The translations under genes and the position numbers were made by a program. Source: Minisyncoccota bacterium (GTDB lineage: Bacteria > Patescibacteriota > Minisyncoccia > Phycocordibacterales > UBA1550). Taken from it: a stretch of 63,201 bases of DNA. The notes under the pieces are model-generated. The model had not been told where the DNA came from. It was given only the letters and a program-made list of their open reading frames with translations, and did not search any database. This document shows positions 1 to 57,091 of this stretch, piece by piece. The stretch lies in contig JAQTPS010000002.1 of NCBI GenBank assembly GCA_028712595.1, forward strand, positions 1 to 63,201, given 5' to 3'. Within the stretch, counting starts at the first letter, position 1. Each line of letters starts with the position of its first letter.

Positions 1-1629
<1,629 letters not shown>

Positions 1630-27929: not shown

Positions 27930-28952
27930 TTAACGCAAATATTTTGCTTTGTTTTCTTTGTGTTCTTCAAAAGTTTTTGCGTAGTGCATTACGCCGTTTT
28001 TATCCGAAAGATAATAGAGAAATGCGGTTTTTTGAGGGAAGATTGCAGAACGTATTGCTCCTAACCCTGGATTGCCTATTGGGCCTTCCGGAAGACCACG
28101 ATTAATGTATGTGTTGTAGGCTGATTTTATTTTTAGGTCCGCCAAAGTGAGTTCGTTCGATTCTTTTCCCAAAAGATAATAAAAAGGAGCGTCAACTTGA
28201 AGTGGCATAAGGTTGTCTATTCTTTTCCATAAAATTCCAGAAACAATTGCTTGATCCTCTGGTGTTTTTGCTTCTTTTTCTAAAATTGAGGCCATAATTA
28301 TGATGTCGCGGAGCGAGTGGCCAGATTCTTTTATCTCGCCCAGAAGCGGTTCTATTTTTGTTTGAAAATTGTCAGTGAATATTTTTTCTACATCTTGCAC
28401 ACTGGCGCGACTGGAAAACAAATATGTGTCGGGGAATAAATAACCTTCATGTGGAGCTAAATCTTTTAGAAAAAGAGACGCGTCGAACCCCGGCAAAGAT
28501 TCTGCGAGGATTACAGATATGCCTTTGTTTGAAGTGCCTTCTGGAATAGTGACTTTGGCCGACGGAATTCCGGAAATTCCATGAATAGTGCGCCAGGCAA
28601 TTGTGCATACAGAAGCTGGCTTTTGGAAAAGGTATTCTCCGGCCATTACGCCCTTCCCAACCCCAAGAGAAACCATGCAAAAGTCAAAAGCTATCTCTGA
28701 TTTAATGATGTGCTCGTTCTGTAGGAGTGTGGAGATTTCTTTGAGCGACTCCCCTTTTGGTATAGTGATCAGTTTCTCTTTCGGGAAATCAGATGGTGGC
28801 GCAAAAAAAATGAGGGAAAGAAGCCAAAGAAATACTACTACTCCGATCACAACGATTAAAACAGTTTTTGAAAAACGGGGTTTAATTTTGGAAAAATAAA
28901 ATTCTAATATTTTTGTTTTTATCTTCTGTATTTTTGAAGGTATTTGTTCCAT
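27930..28952 (-). CDS. mltG: endolytic murein transglycosylase MltG (YceG-like), paralog 1
   Basis: N-terminal TM segment; SILEKEAK...LQVDAPFYY...YNTYINRGLPEGPIGNPG. Confidence 0.87.
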   Translation of the reverse strand: MEQIPSKIQKIKTKILEFYFSKIKPRFSKTVLIVVIGVVVFLWLLSLIFFAPPSDFPKEKLITIPKGESLKEISTLLQNEHIIKSEIAFDFCMVSLGVGKGVMAGEYLFQKPASVCTIAWRTIHGISGIPSAKVTIPEGTSNKGISVILAESLPGFDASLFLKDLAPHEGYLFPDTYLFSSRASVQDVEKIFTDNFQTKIEPLLGEIKESGHSLRDIIIMASILEKEAKTPEDQAIVSGILWKRIDNLMPLQVDAPFYYLLGKESNELTLADLKIKSAYNTYINRGLPEGPIGNPGLGAIRSAIFPQKTAFLYYLSDKNGVMHYAKTFEEHKENKAKYLR

Positions 28953-42855: not shown

Positions 42856-43836
42856 TTAGTTTGCTATATATTTTTTGTTGATTCTAATCGAGACATAACC
42901 AAGCCCAATAAATATAAAACCAAGAACAATGAGAGAAATTGGCCAACCAACGGAATCTGCAAAATATTCGCTTGTGATATACGAAACATGGGCAATAAGG
43001 AAAATGGTGCTCACAACTAAAATGCTACGGCTTTTCATATACACCGACAAATAAAGACCTCCAATCACAAGAAGGAAGTAAACCATCTGCCATGGGACCG
43101 AATCGAACACCTGCGAAAACGCAGCACCAAGAAATCCAGCTATACCGAAAAAGTAAAGAATCCCAATAAGCTGTTTATTCCAGCCGTCACGGAAGGCATG
43201 CGCGAGTAAAAGATAGCTTGCGCCTATCGCCATAGTGAGATAAGCGTACAAATCCTTGAACATATAAGATTCGCCATCAACAATCGCTCCAACGACAAGA
43301 TAAACAAATGCTGTGCCGTTTGCTATCGCAAAAAAAGTCAAAATGGCATTTTTGTGAACATAGTTCAACAATAGATAAAACGCAAAGATAATTCCAAAGG
43401 TGATTGCAACTGGCCACAATGAGACAAAATCTGTATTAAGTTCAGAAAGGGTTACCATTGCTCCTCCGGGAATCAATACGCCCCCGATAAAATGGAAAAT
43501 TGCCCCAAGTTTCTCCTCTGGTTTATTTTTGAGCAACATCGAACCAAGGAAGGCAAAGAGAAAGCCGAGCCCCAGTGTAACCGAGATGCGCCCCAAAGAC
43601 CCTATGTCATACCAAATTTGACGAACAAAAAATACAATCCCAACAATCACGATAGCTGCGCCCAAAATATACAACATCTTTGTCACGGAAAAAGGTGTGG
43701 CATTTTTTGAATTTCCACCCACAATTTCTCTCTGTGCGTTAGTCGCAATGCCAAAACGACTTGCGACTTCTTCGCGACTTATCTCTCCTGTGCTTATTTT
43801 GGCAGAAAGCTCTTGTAACAATTGTTCTTTATTCAT
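42856..43836 (-). CDS. hypothetical polytopic membrane protein (326 aa)
   Basis: Soluble N-terminal helix, then about 9 TM segments. Confidence 0.5.
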   Translation of the reverse strand: MNKEQLLQELSAKISTGEISREEVASRFGIATNAQREIVGGNSKNATPFSVTKMLYILGAAIVIVGIVFFVRQIWYDIGSLGRISVTLGLGFLFAFLGSMLLKNKPEEKLGAIFHFIGGVLIPGGAMVTLSELNTDFVSLWPVAITFGIIFAFYLLLNYVHKNAILTFFAIANGTAFVYLVVGAIVDGESYMFKDLYAYLTMAIGASYLLLAHAFRDGWNKQLIGILYFFGIAGFLGAAFSQVFDSVPWQMVYFLLVIGGLYLSVYMKSRSILVVSTIFLIAHVSYITSEYFADSVGWPISLIVLGFIFIGLGYVSIRINKKYIAN

Positions 43837-43854
43837 AAAATAAATTTTTTATTA

Positions 43855-44442
43855 TTAATTTCTTCCAGGTAGCACCCATCCAATAAATTGAAAATTGTTT
43901 TGGTAATAATACTGATCGGTATTATTTATGAGGTTAATCTTGCTCCTACTTTTTCCTTTTGTAAGATAATAACCAAAGGAAGAGTATCCTCCATCAAAAG
44001 GGAAAAAGTCTCCACCGCTTCTATCATAGTAGCTCGAAACTGTAACACCGTCAGGAGATGTTAAAAGATTGCTAAGTGTCATCGCTTGCGCTTCAGTAAG
44101 TGTTATTTCCCTACTCTCATTCTTTTCTGTATCGTGTAAAAAGATTCGATCGGTATATTTTTCATTAAAATCCAAGATACCGTTTTTGTTGAGGTCTTGC
44201 GTCATGTCAACGGGGTTAACGACAAACTTATCGCCAGCAACTGAATATCGTTTTTGGAGATAACTGTCGCAACGGTACGAATAATAATTATTGCCATCGG
44301 TGCAAGCTGTGTATACAAAGTTGTATTTAGTGGAAAGGAAAAGCGATGGGAGATAAGTACTCAAAGCAACAACAACTATCAATACGATTGGTAATATAAA
44401 AGCAAGCAATATGGCGAAGTTTTTCTTTATAAATTCTTTCAT
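43855..44442 (-). CDS. hypothetical membrane-anchored extracytoplasmic protein (195 aa)
   Basis: N-terminal TM segment; Tyr/Asn-rich ectodomain. Confidence 0.45.
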   Translation of the reverse strand: MKEFIKKNFAILLAFILPIVLIVVVALSTYLPSLFLSTKYNFVYTACTDGNNYYSYRCDSYLQKRYSVAGDKFVVNPVDMTQDLNKNGILDFNEKYTDRIFLHDTEKNESREITLTEAQAMTLSNLLTSPDGVTVSSYYDRSGGDFFPFDGGYSSFGYYLTKGKSRSKINLINNTDQYYYQNNFQFIGWVLPGRN

Positions 44443-44528
44443 AGTTTAATTATACCACTATTTGACGGAGTAGTTAATCTTCTCAATACATGGCTCGACA
44501 ACCCTGTAATTAGGACGTTCTCCTGTCT

Positions 44529-47117
44529 CTATTGGTTACAACCATCAAAAAGACTTTGTTTTGCAAGCCATTTGTAAATTTTTTTCTCGTCCTTTTTCAA
44601 CCACAATATATTTGAATTAATCTTCTCAAGCGCTTGGAGAATAGTGCGGTCTGCGCTAGGAAGCGGATTCTCTTTGAAGAAAGTTTTTATATCGTCATGC
44701 ATCGATTTAAGTGTGTTGCGGTTGAGAACCGATACAATGGTTGACAACATATGGTTTCTTTTACCATATTCTTTTGTTATTTTTTTCCAATTTTTCTTTA
44801 TAAATTTCCAACCAAGAATACGGCCATACGGATTGATGAGCACGTACGCAAACCCGTATACCTTGTCCTGTAAACGAATATGGTCAGTCATAATAAATGC
44901 GAGTGCCTGCTTAAGGATTTTTCTGTCACGAGACGCCGTGAGCGCAAAGAACAGGCGGTCTTTTTCTTCGGGCATATTTTCTTTTTCACAAAGAGCCCTG
45001 ACTTCATCAAATTCTTTCTGACCACCATTCCGAACAATGCTTGCGTATATTAAACTGCGAAAATCTGCTCCGATTGGTTTGATTTTTCTATTTTTGAAAC
45101 GATTTTTTGCTTCTTCCACTACTTCGATATTCTCAAATGACGCCCCAGCGCTAAGAACAAGGATGCGTAAAAGCGCGTCGTTGTGTGGTTCTCCTTTTCG
45201 GGGCTCCCAGCCGACATAACTTATAATCTTCGACAAAATATTCTGCGCGTAAACTTTGAAAAGTTCATAGGATTTTGAACCGAATAAAAGATTATGGAGA
45301 GAAGCAAGCCCAGAAATGATTTCAACCCAAACAATATATTCTTTTTCATTTCTATAAGCCAAAAGCATTTCAAGCAAATAGACAACATCGGATTGTTCAG
45401 CTTCAGCAAGCGCAAATAAATCACGAATAATACCAAGTCTGTCTTGTGGTGTGAGCTTTTCTTCGGAAAGCGCTACTTTGAGCTTTGCCAAGAGATTACC
45501 GTCATACTGCGTGCGATACATTGAACCCTCAAAAGGATTAAGCTTTATGAAGGAGAGCGGAGCGGGTATTGAAATACTCTTTTTATCCATAAGCCCAAGT
45601 GATTCAACACCGTTTGAACTTATAAATGAAAGTGGTATCGGCCAAAGTGTTTTTTGTCCCGATTCCCTGGCGCTAACCCTGCTTGAAAAATACCGCTTTT
45701 GTGAAATATCCAACTTTTTACTTTTTTGATTGATTGACACAGAGACAAGCGGATAGCCCGACTTTTCTGTCCAGATTTCCATCATTTTTTTGACAGGTTT
45801 TTTGGAAATTTTTTCAAAAGCATCCCATAAATGGATAGTTCTCGTATTTTTGTAACTATGTTCTTTCAGATAGAAACGCAAGCCGTCACGAAAATCTTTT
45901 TCACCCAGATAGCTTGCAAGCATACCTATTACCGTAGCTCCCTTGCTGTAAGAAATAGCGTCAAACATTTCACAAATCTCGTCTGGGTTATGTATTTGAA
46001 CTTCTACAACGGGGTGAGTGTTTTTAAGCGCATCAAGCTTGAGCGAACGAGCGAGGTCGTCTGTCACAAATTTTTCCCAAATTTTCCATTCAGGGAAAAG
46101 CGTATCGATTACAATGTATGGCATGTACGACGCAAATCCTTCATTGAGCCAAAGGTCCGCCCACCATTCCATAGTGACTAAATTGCCAAACCACTGGTGT
46201 GTAATCTCGTGGACAATAACATTCGCAACACTTTCTCGCGCGGACGTAGAACTGTGTTCCTTGTCAACCAGAAGCAATTCTTCACGAAATGTTATGGCTC
46301 CCCAATTTTCCATTGCGCCAGCGGCAAAATCCGGAACTGCAATCAAATCAAGCGTATTGAGGGGGTATGGAATATCAAAATATTTTTCATAAAATTCCAA
46401 GGTACGAACTGCAACATCAAGCGCAAATTTCCCCTGCTCTTTTTTCCCAGGAACCGCGATAACTCGGACAAGGACGCCCGAGCTTGTTTTTTGCTCTAAC
46501 CATTCAAAATCACCAACAAGGAAAGCGAGAAGATATGTGGACATCTTCGGTGTCGGAGCGAAAGAGACGATTTCGAAACCAGCTCGATGCTTATTTGTTG
46601 CAACAGGCAAAGTGTTTGATACTGCGGTTTTATTTTTTGGAATAATCAAGTGCACTGCAAAAACTGCTTTCTGCGCTGGCTCGTCAAAACAAGGAATACA
46701 TCTACGCGCATCGGTCGCTTCAAACTGTGTTGCGGCCATAAAACGATTCTTCCCGCCCACCGCATACTTACTTTTATAAAAACCTCGCATATTATTTGCC
46801 AATATCCCAGAAAATTGAAGGTGAAGTCTTGTTTCACCTTTCTTTATTTGTTTTGAAAAGACGAATGTCGCTGTTTCTAATTCTTTGTCGTATAAAATTT
46901 TTTGTGCTTTTATTTTTTCTTTACCACACAAAAGATTGGCGCTCGTGATGTCTAAATCGTTTGAGTGCATGGTGATTTCTTTTACGTTTTTCTCCAGTTT
47001 AATCGTTATCGTTTCTTCCCCCTTAAAAGTATGAGCTTCAAGGTCTGGTTCAAGTGTAATTTCATAGTGGACCGGAAAAATATGTTTAGGCAGTCGTTCC
47101 GATTTATTTTTATCCAT
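44529..47117 (-). CDS. M1 family aminopeptidase (aminopeptidase N / ERAP-like, with an ERAP1-type C-terminal domain)
   Basis: GAMENWG and HEITHQWFGNLVTMEWWADLWLNEGFA (HExxH-18-E). Confidence 0.9.
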   Translation of the reverse strand: MDKNKSERLPKHIFPVHYEITLEPDLEAHTFKGEETITIKLEKNVKEITMHSNDLDITSANLLCGKEKIKAQKILYDKELETATFVFSKQIKKGETRLHLQFSGILANNMRGFYKSKYAVGGKNRFMAATQFEATDARRCIPCFDEPAQKAVFAVHLIIPKNKTAVSNTLPVATNKHRAGFEIVSFAPTPKMSTYLLAFLVGDFEWLEQKTSSGVLVRVIAVPGKKEQGKFALDVAVRTLEFYEKYFDIPYPLNTLDLIAVPDFAAGAMENWGAITFREELLLVDKEHSSTSARESVANVIVHEITHQWFGNLVTMEWWADLWLNEGFASYMPYIVIDTLFPEWKIWEKFVTDDLARSLKLDALKNTHPVVEVQIHNPDEICEMFDAISYSKGATVIGMLASYLGEKDFRDGLRFYLKEHSYKNTRTIHLWDAFEKISKKPVKKMMEIWTEKSGYPLVSVSINQKSKKLDISQKRYFSSRVSARESGQKTLWPIPLSFISSNGVESLGLMDKKSISIPAPLSFIKLNPFEGSMYRTQYDGNLLAKLKVALSEEKLTPQDRLGIIRDLFALAEAEQSDVVYLLEMLLAYRNEKEYIVWVEIISGLASLHNLLFGSKSYELFKVYAQNILSKIISYVGWEPRKGEPHNDALLRILVLSAGASFENIEVVEEAKNRFKNRKIKPIGADFRSLIYASIVRNGGQKEFDEVRALCEKENMPEEKDRLFFALTASRDRKILKQALAFIMTDHIRLQDKVYGFAYVLINPYGRILGWKFIKKNWKKITKEYGKRNHMLSTIVSVLNRNTLKSMHDDIKTFFKENPLPSADRTILQALEKINSNILWLKKDEKKIYKWLAKQSLFDGCNQ

Positions 47118-47170
47118 ATGTCTGGCACTATAACAGAAATCTCCATCTTGGGGAAATGCGCGAGTTTGTG

Positions 47171-47303
47171 TGGAACCAAGAGGATTCTCCTTCGACTAAA
47201 TTTTTGTCGTCACAAAAATTTGTCTAGGCACTGGCTCGCGGCCTTCGACAGCTTCCCCGACATCGCTCCGCCATTCGAATCCTCTACAAAAGCAAAACTT
47301 TTG
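47171..47303 (-). repeat. tRNA-linked structured module, Val copy (antisense tRNA segment - conserved core - hairpin - sense copy of the tRNA 3' end)
   Basis: See findings. Core 47222-47273, antisense T-arm copy 47274-47285, sense copy 47171-47187. Confidence 0.6.
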
Positions 47304-47377
47304 TGGATCCAAGAGGATTCGAACCTCTGACCTTTCGCGTGTGAAGCGAACGCTCTAACCAGCTGAGCTATGAATCC
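47304..47377 (-). tRNA. tRNA-Val (anticodon CAC), no encoded CCA
   Basis: Hand-folded cloverleaf: GGATTCA/TGGATCC acceptor, GCTC/GAGC D-stem, TTCGC-TTCACAC-GCGAA anticodon arm, AGAGG-TTCGAAT-CCTCT T-arm. Confidence 0.93.
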
Positions 47378-47426
47378 GTATTGAAATTTCCGCGGAAGCA
47401 TCCCATGCTTCCGGTTGAGAACAGTG

Positions 47427-47498
47427 TCGGGGTGCCGAGATTTGAACTCGGAGTCTCACGAACCCGAATCGCGCATGTTACCGTTACACTACACCCCG
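47427..47498 (-). tRNA. tRNA-Pro (anticodon CGG), no encoded CCA
   Basis: CGGGGTG/CACCCCG acceptor, CGCGA-TTCGGGT-TCGTG anticodon arm with G37, CCGAG-TTCAAAT-CTCGG T-arm. Confidence 0.9.
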
Positions 47499-47511
47499 AC
47501 ACTGTTCTCAA

Positions 47512-47548
47512 CCCCAAATCCCGCATGTTACCGTTACACTACGCCCCG
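47512..47548 (-). pseudogene. 5' half of a tRNA-Pro(UGG)-like gene (acceptor 5' strand through anticodon loop), with no 3' half
   Basis: 33/37 identity to the first 37 nt of the adjacent tRNA-Pro. The anticodon position reads TGG. No T-arm or CGCCCCG acceptor strand follows. Confidence 0.6.
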
Positions 47549-47605
47549 TATTGCTCTAGCAACATTCAGGTTACCAATTTTGCACCTTGTTGGCAATATA
47601 AAACT

Positions 47606-47659: not shown

Positions 47660-47998
47660 TTATGCAAGAGCAAACTTCTTGCTATTTTGTTCCATTCTCC
47701 AATTGTAGATTGCAGCTCCCTGCTCCCATATCTGGTCTAGTAGAATCTCGGCGCTTTTTTGCATATATTCGGTGATTTCTTCAGATGATTTGCGTTTTGC
47801 TAGGGCAAGACACTTTTTGATTATCTTGTCATCAAGTGGAATATTATCTCCTGTTTTTTCTTCCATAATTTTCGCCCACAAATGAGCGAAAATAACAACG
47901 CTGTGGTCATTTTTTTCTATCTGCGCAGAAATAAACCCTTCCATGCTTTTCAAACCTTGACGATACTTGATCTGTGGAAGTTTTACATGGTTTTCCAT
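47660..47998 (-). CDS. hypothetical protein (112 aa)
   Basis: ATG ORF with its own terminator; no recognisable domain. Confidence 0.45.
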   Translation of the reverse strand: MENHVKLPQIKYRQGLKSMEGFISAQIEKNDHSVVIFAHLWAKIMEEKTGDNIPLDDKIIKKCLALAKRKSSEEITEYMQKSAEILLDQIWEQGAAIYNWRMEQNSKKFALA

Positions 47999-55314: not shown

Positions 55315-55461
55315 GCCGGGAGAGAGAATCTCCCGCGACTCAAAGTTCGTCGTCACTCACTTTGGTCTGGGCACTGCCTCGTCTGTTTCGCAAGCTTGCG
55401 AAACATGACTGCGGCATTCGATTCTCTACGCAAGACGCACCAGCGTCTTGCTCTCCCGGCA
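55315..55461 (-). repeat. tRNA-linked structured module, Leu copy
   Basis: See findings. Antisense copy 55417-55461 (split by a hairpin), core 55366-55416, sense copy 55315-55330. An extra sense copy lies at 55211-55224. Confidence 0.58.
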
Positions 55462-55476
55462 CAAAAACGCGAACCC

Positions 55477-56802: not shown

Positions 56803-56812
56803 ACTATTGGTT

Positions 56813-57073
56813 CCTCGAGGAGAGTCGAATGGCGGAACGATGCCGAGCAAGCTTGCGAGGCCGTGAGCCAGTGCCCAGCCCGAGCCGAGTGGCGACGAGG
56901 CGAGAGGCGCGGGCGACTCTCCTCGGGTGGCGAGCCAGTGCCCAGAGTTTCTCGAGCGACGGCGAGAGAAAACTCGAGGGCAAGAAATAAAAGAGTACAC
57001 CACTAAAACCGTGAGCCAGTGCCCAGCCCGAGCCAAGTGGCGACGAGGCGAGAGTCGCGGGCGACTCTCCTCG
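56813..57073 (+). repeat. tRNA-linked structured module, Ala copies (one full unit 56813-56928 plus a second rearranged unit; 65-nt direct repeat 56861-56925 / 57009-57073)
   Basis: See findings. G+C-rich, and carries the same core as the Val and Leu loci. Confidence 0.6.
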
Positions 57074-57091
57074 AGCTTTCTGTTTTCCCAT

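Follow-up and report, generated by a model that had tools for sequence, protein, structure and literature searches.

How is a bacterial tRNA matured when its leader and trailer are paired with one another in a long helix, and why should half of a second tRNA be kept directly in front of it? These questions are raised by a tRNA-Pro(CGG) gene on the minus strand of a 63,201-nucleotide stretch of DNA from a Minisyncoccota bacterium (contig JAQTPS010000002.1 of assembly GCA_028712595.1, positions 1 to 63,201; hereafter the window), which is enclosed by a perfect leader-trailer helix, here called the clamp, and is preceded by an orphan 5′ half of tRNA-Pro(UGG). On the usual view of bacterial tRNA genes, RNase P and 3′ trimming call for no more than a leader and a trailer that are single-stranded, and a conserved two-turn clamp beside a conserved truncated paralog would imply an extra, rRNA-like processing or folding step for a tRNA. 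We tentatively favor the reading that clamp and half together constitute a lineage-specific tRNA precursor architecture maintained by selection.

The clamp and the half-tRNA

Read 5′ to 3′ on the minus strand, the locus comprises the terminator of a gene for a 112-residue product, a promoter-like block, a small hairpin, the half-tRNA (H), the leader strand of the clamp (L), tRNA-Pro(CGG), the trailer strand (L′), a second hairpin, a spacer and tRNA-Val(CAC) (Table 1). The two arms of the clamp, at 47413-47434 and 47492-47513, are 22 nucleotides long, 57 nucleotides apart and 100% complementary, both in a repeat search and on direct reading, as a sequence-only reading of the window had proposed. 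That reading also held that leader and trailer extend the acceptor stem through the discriminator position, and this too is borne out: 7 bp of acceptor stem continue into 15 bp of leader and trailer, with discriminator A73 paired to U-1, giving a continuous helix of about two turns (at least 20 bp) that encloses the mature tRNA. At this base composition 15 consecutive Watson-Crick pairs would occur by chance with p ∼1.4e-9, and the 22 bp helix is predicted by both the minimum free energy (MFE) and the centroid RNA folds (z = -5.8).

We compared this structure with 313 other tRNAs, of which three are the remaining tRNAs of the window, 64 lie in Patescibacteria-type loci and 246 are encoded by phages. 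The contiguous extension of the acceptor stem is 0-1 bp in nearly all of them, including the window's other three and the 64 Patescibacteria-type tRNAs, and reaches a maximum of 4 bp among those of phages (0-4 bp), so that the clamp is not a general habit of the organism. The exceptions with long extensions, apart from the window gene, are its ortholog in a sister genome and one tRNA-Gln of that same genome. Rfam contains no family for the half-tRNA, the clamp or the tRNA-linked RNA modules described below, and the clamp matches only microRNA-precursor models, far below threshold.

The half-tRNA, read from 47548 to 47512, is CGGGGCGTAGTGTAACGGTAACATGCGGGATTTGGGG, and its 37 nucleotides correspond to the acceptor 5′ strand, the D-arm, the 5′ strand of the anticodon stem and an anticodon loop with TGG, ending at position 37/38. 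It forms a direct repeat with the first 37 nucleotides of the intact gene at a spacing of 50 nucleotides and with four differences, which agrees with what had been claimed from the sequence; 13-15 nucleotides separate the partial from the complete copy, and the end of the half coincides exactly with the start of the inverted repeat. The earlier observation that the half lacks its other side also holds, as neither a matching 3′ acceptor strand (CGCCCCG) nor a second Pro-type T-arm is present anywhere in the 63-kb window. CGG leaves 75% of proline codons unread, and these depend on a tRNA with UGG or GGG. The genome had been presumed to be AT-rich, but with a G+C content of ∼41% the window is only moderately so.

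An independent assembly of the locus is provided by Logan contig L074 (SRR22315508), which is base-for-base identical through H, L and the first 44 nucleotides of the tRNA and then ends inside the tRNA, thereby covering the upstream side; the trailer side comes from one assembly. Given this agreement, misassembly is not the explanation.

Comparison with a sister genome

Scanning metagenomes with the tRNA-Pro 5′ sequence yielded 18 loci, 17 of which contain ordinary tRNA-Pro(UGG) or tRNA-Pro(CGG) genes with neither half nor clamp; the remaining one, on a 583-kb contig of what we refer to as the sister genome, has the same architecture as the window. The first metagenome pattern used, a UGG-specific 5′ half, gave no matches. 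The sister arrangement is seen in three assemblies, since the JGI contig Ga0172381_10000001 (L130) corresponds to ENA ERZ27247350 k141_1778501 (L134), and Logan contig L135 matches the ENA assembly exactly over 263 nucleotides spanning the halves. In both genomes YceG lies directly upstream of the cluster (the sister homologue is 81% identical), and the two clusters align colinearly. The closest genomes are those of Candidatus Nomurabacteria/Paceibacteria of the Candidate Phyla Radiation (CPR).

Proteins of the two genomes are 81-87% identical, and 4-fold-degenerate sites only 41-43% identical, which is saturation; unconstrained DNA should therefore be unrecognizable. Across the cluster, short conserved and short diverged segments are interleaved (Table 1), which argues for selection and against a recent transfer of the whole locus. 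ARAGORN and Rfam place the intact gene at 47426/47427-47498, and one of the differences from its sister ortholog, in the T-stem, is compensated. CCA is not encoded in the intact tRNA-Pro(CGG) gene of either genome.

The sister cluster is more elaborate, with the order H1-L1-H2-L2-tRNA-Pro(CGG)-L2′-hairpin-spacer-3′-half-like piece-small hairpin-structured module-L1′-GGAAGCAU-tRNA-Val. It thus has two halves and two nested clamps. The inner clamp, GGGUAACAUCAGUGU / ACACUGAUGUUAACC, departs from that of the window in three double changes, all compensatory, and in one mismatch. The outer clamp, GGUUGAUGAUAUUGU / ACAAUGUCAUCAACC, is 15 bp long with one G.U and pairs across 330 nucleotides, bracketing the second half, H2, whose acceptor strand CGGGAUG is matched in 7/7 positions by a 3′ acceptor strand CAUCCCG ∼300 nucleotides downstream. 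The 3′-half-like piece consists of UUGUG AGAC, a 16-nucleotide arm, a T-arm, CGCCCCG and ACCA; the structured module ends in ...AAAUCCCGG CAUCCCG A and is followed by L1′, and GGAAGCAU, after this outer trailer, is a truncated copy of the post-trailer hairpin. The window has one half, one clamp and no 3′ piece, with tRNA-Val at the place where the sister has the 3′-half-like piece.

When the three versions of the 22 bp helix are aligned, 98.5% of cells are paired and 7/22 pairs have changed on both sides; five of these seven lie within the 15 bp extension, across orthologous and paralogous clamps. None of 500 shuffles reached the observed conservation of pairing, and sliding the partner strand reduced the paired fraction to 33-49%. 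Apart from one G.U, which pairs in the sense RNA only, and one G.A, there are no non-Watson-Crick pairs in the clamps, and when the sister cluster is folded as a whole, both nested helices are present in the predicted MFE structure (z = -9).

The halves are similarly well preserved: that of the window is identical to H1 in 34/37 positions and to H2 in 35/38. UGG and G38 are kept in all three copies and the loop UUUGGGG is invariant, U34 and G38 being the only half-specific positions relative to the intact tRNA-Pro(CGG). H1 could pair perfectly with the 3′ acceptor strand of the intact gene. The half also has complementarity to other parts of the cluster. The stretch CGGGAUUUG (47512-47530) is complementary, with one G.U, to the T-loop/T-stem 3′ strand of tRNA-Pro, CAAAUCUCG (47436-47446), and in the sister genome its complementarity to the T-arm 3′ strand CAAAUCYCG is perfect; in the predicted MFE fold of the sister cluster H2 pairs with the T-arm of the downstream 3′ piece. 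This complementarity could be a coincidence or could reflect an alternative pairing. In the window, the predicted MFE fold pairs AAAUUUC of the spacer with GGGAUUU of the half.

A second instance of a clamp is seen at the sister tRNA-Gln(UUG) locus (L130 1761-2050). Upstream of the gene there is a 5′ fragment comprising the acceptor strand and the D-arm, leader and trailer form an imperfect helix of ∼20 bp (9 contiguous), and downstream are two partial 3′ copies, each preceded by the repeat AAACAGUCAAUAG. With tRNA-Pro in the window, and tRNA-Pro and tRNA-Gln in the sister, the clamp appears where partial self-copies adjoin an intact gene.

The sequence-only reading had raised the prospect that relatives might lack both the half and the extended inverted repeat; the sister has both, and it is only among more distant Paceibacteria that they are missing. 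On present evidence the design is restricted to two genomes of one Paceibacteria genus-level lineage. In the distant Paceibacteria, tRNA-Pro(CGG) genes (L125, tRNA 694-766, minus strand; L128/L129) have neither half nor clamp. Behind the L125 gene its T-arm and 3′ end are repeated, with a 28-nucleotide insert splitting the T-loop of the copy, a shorter module-like element, and L128/L129 have a T-stem-like sequence in the trailer. Using pepN synteny, we found no tRNA-Pro or tRNA-Val upstream in 73 genome loci or in contigs of a 72% relative; for an 88%/78% relative (ENA ERZ1426851) contigs cover both flanks. In viral collections the matches were limited to phage tRNA-Pro genes sharing the D-arm, three candidate matches to the Pro T-arm/3′-acceptor pattern and one chance match to the half pattern, and IMG/VR contains no copies of the tRNA-Pro unit.

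What the architecture may be, and what else could explain it

We propose that clamp-flanked tRNA-Pro units were duplicated, in nested or tandem fashion and with a period of ∼50 nucleotides. Such a duplication footprint is suggested by the 5′ pieces stacked upstream, the 3′ pieces downstream and the matching of the outer clamp and acceptor strands; the half would have arisen by such a duplication and would survive as a conserved leader. Half, tRNA-Pro and tRNA-Val would form one precursor transcribed from the block upstream of the half, as suggested by the conserved block before the half and the lack of terminator-like sites on the sense strand inside the cluster, which were found in neither genome, including in the interval from tRNA-Pro to tRNA-Val. 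Within this precursor the clamp could have two roles. It may keep the 5′ and 3′ ends that belong to tRNA-Pro(CGG) in register and thereby prevent the near-identical half from pairing with the 3′ acceptor strand, and as a two-turn double-stranded stem it may block RNase P and the 3′ trimming enzymes. The stem would then have to be opened by a double-strand-specific endonuclease of the RNase III type or by a helicase, and its cleavage would at the same time detach the half and tRNA-Val from the tRNA. Maturation of tRNA-Pro(CGG) would afterwards be completed by RNase P, by 3′ trimming and by CCA addition, a step called for because CCA is not encoded, and the half would be released as a sequence-conserved, tRNA-half-like leader RNA.

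A close parallel is found in bacterial rRNA precursors, where a leader-trailer helix of at least 20 bp encloses the mature RNA, shows covariation, and serves both as a folding aid and as an RNase III cleavage site. The clamp resembles these stems in that flanking sequences form a helix of at least 20 bp around a mature RNA, with pairing kept by covariation; it is unlike them in enclosing a single 72-nucleotide tRNA and in continuing the acceptor stem coaxially. The sequence-only reading had made the same comparison, which gains from the helix being real and kept by compensatory changes and, by analogy, from the behavior of RNase P. The bacterial enzyme must unwind pairing between the leader and the 3′ end, and two such pairs already lower kcat/Km (PMC9433436). 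A 15 bp extension should thus block RNase P, and 3′ trimming should be blocked too. As in the cases studied there, pairing of the leader extends the acceptor stem and needs unwinding before catalysis (PMC9433436), but in E. coli the RCCA end naturally takes part in 1-3 such pairs, whereas here there would be 15 pairs with a non-CCA trailer, far beyond what RNase P is known to unwind. The release of a stable small RNA from the spacer would also have a counterpart. In E. coli, 3′ETS-leuZ is a regulatory RNA derived from a tRNA precursor spacer. Here too a conserved spacer of a tRNA operon could be released, with the difference that the spacer is itself a tRNA half. The ultra-small CPR bacteria already have unusual RNA biology, and the clamp offers a testable substrate for studying their tRNA maturation.

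Several points weigh against this proposal. Two genomes with three helix versions mean that the covariation rests on few independent events, and concerted DNA-level repair of the inverted repeat could mimic it. Conservation of the half could stem in part from gene conversion by the neighboring tRNA-Pro(CGG), and the D-stem of H1 is weakened, showing that H1 is not conserved as a working tRNA arm. A strict sigma-70 consensus scan did not call the conserved block at 47565-47596, and no RNase III gene was seen in Pfam scans of 30 open reading frames (ORFs), which are part of the window. Both the folding-insulator role and the cleavage of the clamp by RNase III are conjecture.

The alternative that survives best, although we consider it unlikely, is that the locus is a DNA-level relic without RNA function: a nested insertion or deletion in which the neighboring tRNA-Pro(CGG) unit took part would have disrupted the anticodon loop of a tRNA-Pro(UGG) gene, and repeat and half would since have been kept by conversion or palindrome correction rather than by selection acting on the transcript. 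Template switching at quasi-palindromes is a known mutational process, the half ends exactly at the start of the inverted repeat, and the 50-nucleotide periodicity suggests duplication. The outer unit of the sister keeps both of its ends (L1 + CGGGATG ... CATCCCG + L1′) around a large interruption, and both the degraded D-stem of H1 and the orphan state of the half in the window would be expected of a relic. It is harder to see, however, why the half, the hairpin and the spacer should be 92%, 100% and 87% identical when neutral sites are saturated at 41-43%, or why the sister half copies have been homogenized neither with each other nor with the intact gene, with UGG and G38 retained in all three. 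The five compensatory changes in the 15 bp extension and the single G.U also fit selection for RNA pairing better. Conversion is possible for H, but it leaves the conserved hairpin and spacer and the compensated clamps unexplained. In its simpler form, as the destroyed gene that the sequence-only reading had considered, this explanation is not supported: identity reaches 92% in the half and only 41-43% at neutral sites, and the half occurs twice in the sister. We rejected a decaying tRNA pseudogene on comparing the half (34/37) with the 4-fold-degenerate sites and with the adjacent spacer (5/16), a contribution from gene conversion being possible. A single recent fold-back or template switch, by which the leader would have been made from the trailer and a tRNA-Pro(UGG) would have lost its 3′ half, is ruled out by the compensated differences in the sister.

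A second alternative, which we find improbable, is that the half is the 5′ exon of a tRNA-Pro(UGG) which is joined to a 3′ part once a nested tRNA-Pro(CGG) has been excised. In the sister the 3′ part might be the downstream piece, ...UUGUG AGAC [arm] UCCGGGUUCAAAUCCCGA CGCCCCG ACCA, and in the window genome it would have to lie somewhere outside the window. With equally little likelihood, tRNA-Pro(CGG) would be nested at the split site in the anticodon loop and the 15 bp clamps would guide its excision, the bulge-free helix then calling for different enzymes. If true, it would give Bacteria their first case of a fragmented tRNA gene system, a counterpart of the split and intron-containing tRNAs of archaea.

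Several observations favor such a model. The half ends at 37/38, the canonical intron/split site, UUUGGGG is invariant in all three copies, and a UGG or GGG anticodon is required for 75% of proline codons; on the sister contig the 5′ sequence usual for tRNA-Pro in Paceibacteria is matched just once. H1 and the downstream piece can be combined into a cloverleaf in which the acceptor stem matches, the anticodon stem is G.U-paired and CCA is encoded, and H2 finds its 7/7 acceptor match, CATCCCG for CGGGATG, 300 nucleotides downstream. Nonetheless, the 63-kb window has no 3′ half, no matching acceptor strand and no second Pro T-arm, and the 3′ piece of the sister is not conserved there, tRNA-Val taking its place. 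The complement of the leader comes after a complete tRNA, and what comes next is a hairpin and tRNA-Val and not a 3′ half. A bulge-helix-bulge is missing: pairing is unbroken in the window helix, those of the sister deviate by a single mismatch or a single G.U, and none has 3-nucleotide bulges. Joins made in silico were scored with ARAGORN, and since every chimera was accepted, including mismatched ones, the exercise does not discriminate. Combining the window half with the 3′ half of the CGG gene produces C.A and G.G mismatches, and to our knowledge no bacterial enzyme system for joining tRNA halves in this way has been described. A shared 3′ half serving two 5′ halves was considered separately and rejected, because of the C6.A67 and G29.G41 mismatches in the window and because H2 of the sister mismatches as well, so that compatibility is not conserved. 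On the earlier suggestion of a split or unusually processed tRNA the evidence is divided: compatible 3′ pieces lie downstream in the sister, but the window has no 3′ half and the geometry is not that of archaeal split tRNAs.

Among the split and tri-split tRNAs of Nanoarchaeum equitans and Caldivirga maquilingensis, some parts are common to isoacceptors with different anticodons (Fujishima et al. 2009, as related in PMC10714607). The half described here is similar in ending at 37/38 and in being followed by a 14-15-nucleotide sequence with a perfect complement elsewhere. It differs in that it occurs in a bacterium, that the complement lies 3′ of a complete tRNA, and that there is neither a bulge-helix-bulge nor a 3′ half within the window. 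We know of no splicing endonuclease in bacteria.

We think it very improbable that a mobile element shaped the locus, whether by leaving an att-site remnant or in the form of a miniature element, bounded by terminal inverted repeats, that carried tRNA-Pro(CGG) into the anticodon loop of tRNA-Pro(UGG). Partial tRNA copies beside intact genes usually do result from integration, and att-type copies typically have a kb-scale, integrase-bearing element between the complete copy and a partial copy that is usually 3′ (bioRxiv 10.1101/2022.07.05.498093). The direct partial copy adjoining an intact tRNA gene is reminiscent of this; moreover, the L-tRNA-L′ unit has 22 bp terminal inverted repeats and in three cases is flanked by ...UUUGG on the left and by GGAAGCAU on the right. 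Yet here the copies are 13-15 nucleotides apart with no element between them, and the partial copy is an upstream 5′ piece (positions 1-37/38) rather than the usual 3′ piece. Pfam scans of the same 30 window ORFs identified no integrase, transposase, reverse transcriptase or RNA ligase, and the first three are also lacking at the sister locus. While att copies are missing from relatives with an empty site, the half is kept in the sister, the orthologous position is stable in both genomes and there are no IMG/VR copies; the identity of the right flanks is more readily accounted for if they belong to the duplicated unit. Partial tRNA copies, then, are not always integration scars or annotation noise.

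Finally, an assembly artefact, which the sequence-only reading had also entertained, or a very recent one-off template switch in a single strain is hardly credible: a perfect inverted repeat abutting a duplication boundary is what a fresh fold-back or chimeric join would leave, and the Logan contig breaks inside the tRNA, but that contig repeats half, leader and tRNA start exactly, the JGI, ENA and Logan assemblies of the sister show the orthologous design, and 4 leader and 3 trailer positions of this design are not those of the window, a divergence that a fresh event could not have produced.

Other features of the cluster, a tRNA-linked RNA module and neighboring genes

Table 1. Features of the tRNA-Pro cluster and sites of the tRNA-linked module. 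Coordinates refer to the window unless a sister contig is named.
Feature	Position	Strand	Identity to sister	Basis and remarks
Promoter-like block, TTGCCA-N17-TGGTAACCT GAA	47565..47596	minus	28/32	conserved, compared with 41-43% at neutral sites
Small hairpin, TTGC TAGA GCAA	47551..47562	minus		directly 5′ of H; tentative, read from sequence
Spacer before H			5/16	neutral-like
Orphan 5′ half of tRNA-Pro(UGG) (H), loop UUUGGGG	47512..47548	minus	34/37 (92%)	direct repeat; Logan contig L074; sister copies
Clamp leader strand L, GGUUGAGAACAGUGU, 15 nt	47499..47513	minus	11/15, pairing retained	inverted repeat, fold and pairing comparison; first two G are the last two of H
tRNA-Pro(CGG), intact	47427..47498	minus	68/72	ARAGORN; Rfam RF00005, 61 bits
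Clamp trailer strand L′, ACACUGUUCUCAACC, 15 nt	47413..47427	minus	12/15, pairing retained	begins with discriminator A at 47427; inverted repeat, fold and pairing comparison
Hairpin, GGAAGCAUGGGAUGCUUCC	47394..47412	minus	19/19	directly 3′ of trailer, without U-run
Conserved spacer, GCGGAAAUUUCAAUAC, 16 nt	47378..47393	minus	13/15 (87%)	between hairpin and tRNA-Val
tRNA-Val(CAC)	47304..47377	minus		ARAGORN, Rfam; next gene of the same presumed transcript
tRNA-linked module	47170-47285	minus
tRNA-linked module	∼55320-55465	minus
tRNA-linked module	56805-57090	plus
tRNA-linked module, sister	L134 9478-9598	minus
tRNA-linked module, sister	L134 Leu and Ala loci

The role of the block at 47565-47596 as a promoter is putative. 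In the sister a hairpin, AGCG TCTATA CGCT, occupies the position of the small hairpin that precedes the half in the window. The hairpin at 47394-47412 was not called in a terminator scan. The tRNA-Val(CAC) genes that follow in the two genomes (47304-47377 in the window and L134 9385-9461 in the sister) have acceptor strands GGAUUCA and GGACGAU respectively, and differ in the anticodon and T stems as well, with CCA encoded in the sister only. As the adjacent tRNA-Pro(CGG) genes are 94% identical, such strong differences suggest that the tRNA-Val genes may not be orthologous. In the sister an encoded CCA follows both tRNA-Val and the 3′-half-like Pro piece (L130 14534-14540).

As had been noted from the sequence, the other window tRNAs also have partial copies of themselves nearby, both inverted and direct, which come after tRNA-Val, tRNA-Leu and tRNA-Ala alike. 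A conserved, structured RNA module is present 3′ of these three tRNAs and of the Pro 3′ piece of the sister. The closing stem of the module is a copy of the T-stem and 3′ acceptor strand of the tRNA concerned, and its core has the invariant loops GAAUGGCGGA, AGUGCCYAGA and GAGYGRCGRCGA and hairpin stems that are wholly rewritten, yet complementary, between genomes. The core motif is found five times in the window, where 0.07 occurrences are expected, and always beside a tRNA. No Rfam family corresponds to it and IMG/VR gave only chance matches to the core; from its sequence it looks like an undescribed tRNA-linked non-coding RNA family. The 3′ part of the core of the window Val module (47170-47285) is 100% identical to that of the sister Pro module (L134 9478-9598), which is at the same relative position, and the flanking stems match tRNA-Val in the window and tRNA-Pro in the sister. 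Either the flanks have been re-templated by the upstream tRNA or these are independent insertions of one element. These modules, together with tRNA genes lying within arrays of their own fragments, point to a wider lineage-specific architecture.

The genes around the cluster are ordinary bacterial housekeeping genes, with products including PepN, MltG/YceG, Ddl, MiaA, malic enzyme, several aminoacyl-tRNA synthetases, DnaK/DnaJ and RpoA. Between YceG and the tRNA cluster lies the 112-residue ORF (47660-47998, minus strand), which is absent from the sister genome; a gene for 112 residues occupies the same place in the 78% relative. It has no homologue among 5.8 billion proteins, and its one Pfam match, to the Thoeris inhibitor Tad4, is below threshold (E 2e-4, 21.9 bits; cutoff 25). 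In the sister a UDG-family gene comes directly after tRNA-Val (L134 9356-9385); in the window a block encoding PepN, a 195-residue ORF and a DUF2157 protein (42856-47117) is inserted between tRNA-Val and the UDG-family gene, downstream of the Val module. A second YceG/MltG paralogue is encoded at 27930-28952 on the minus strand, 20 kb from the one beside the cluster.

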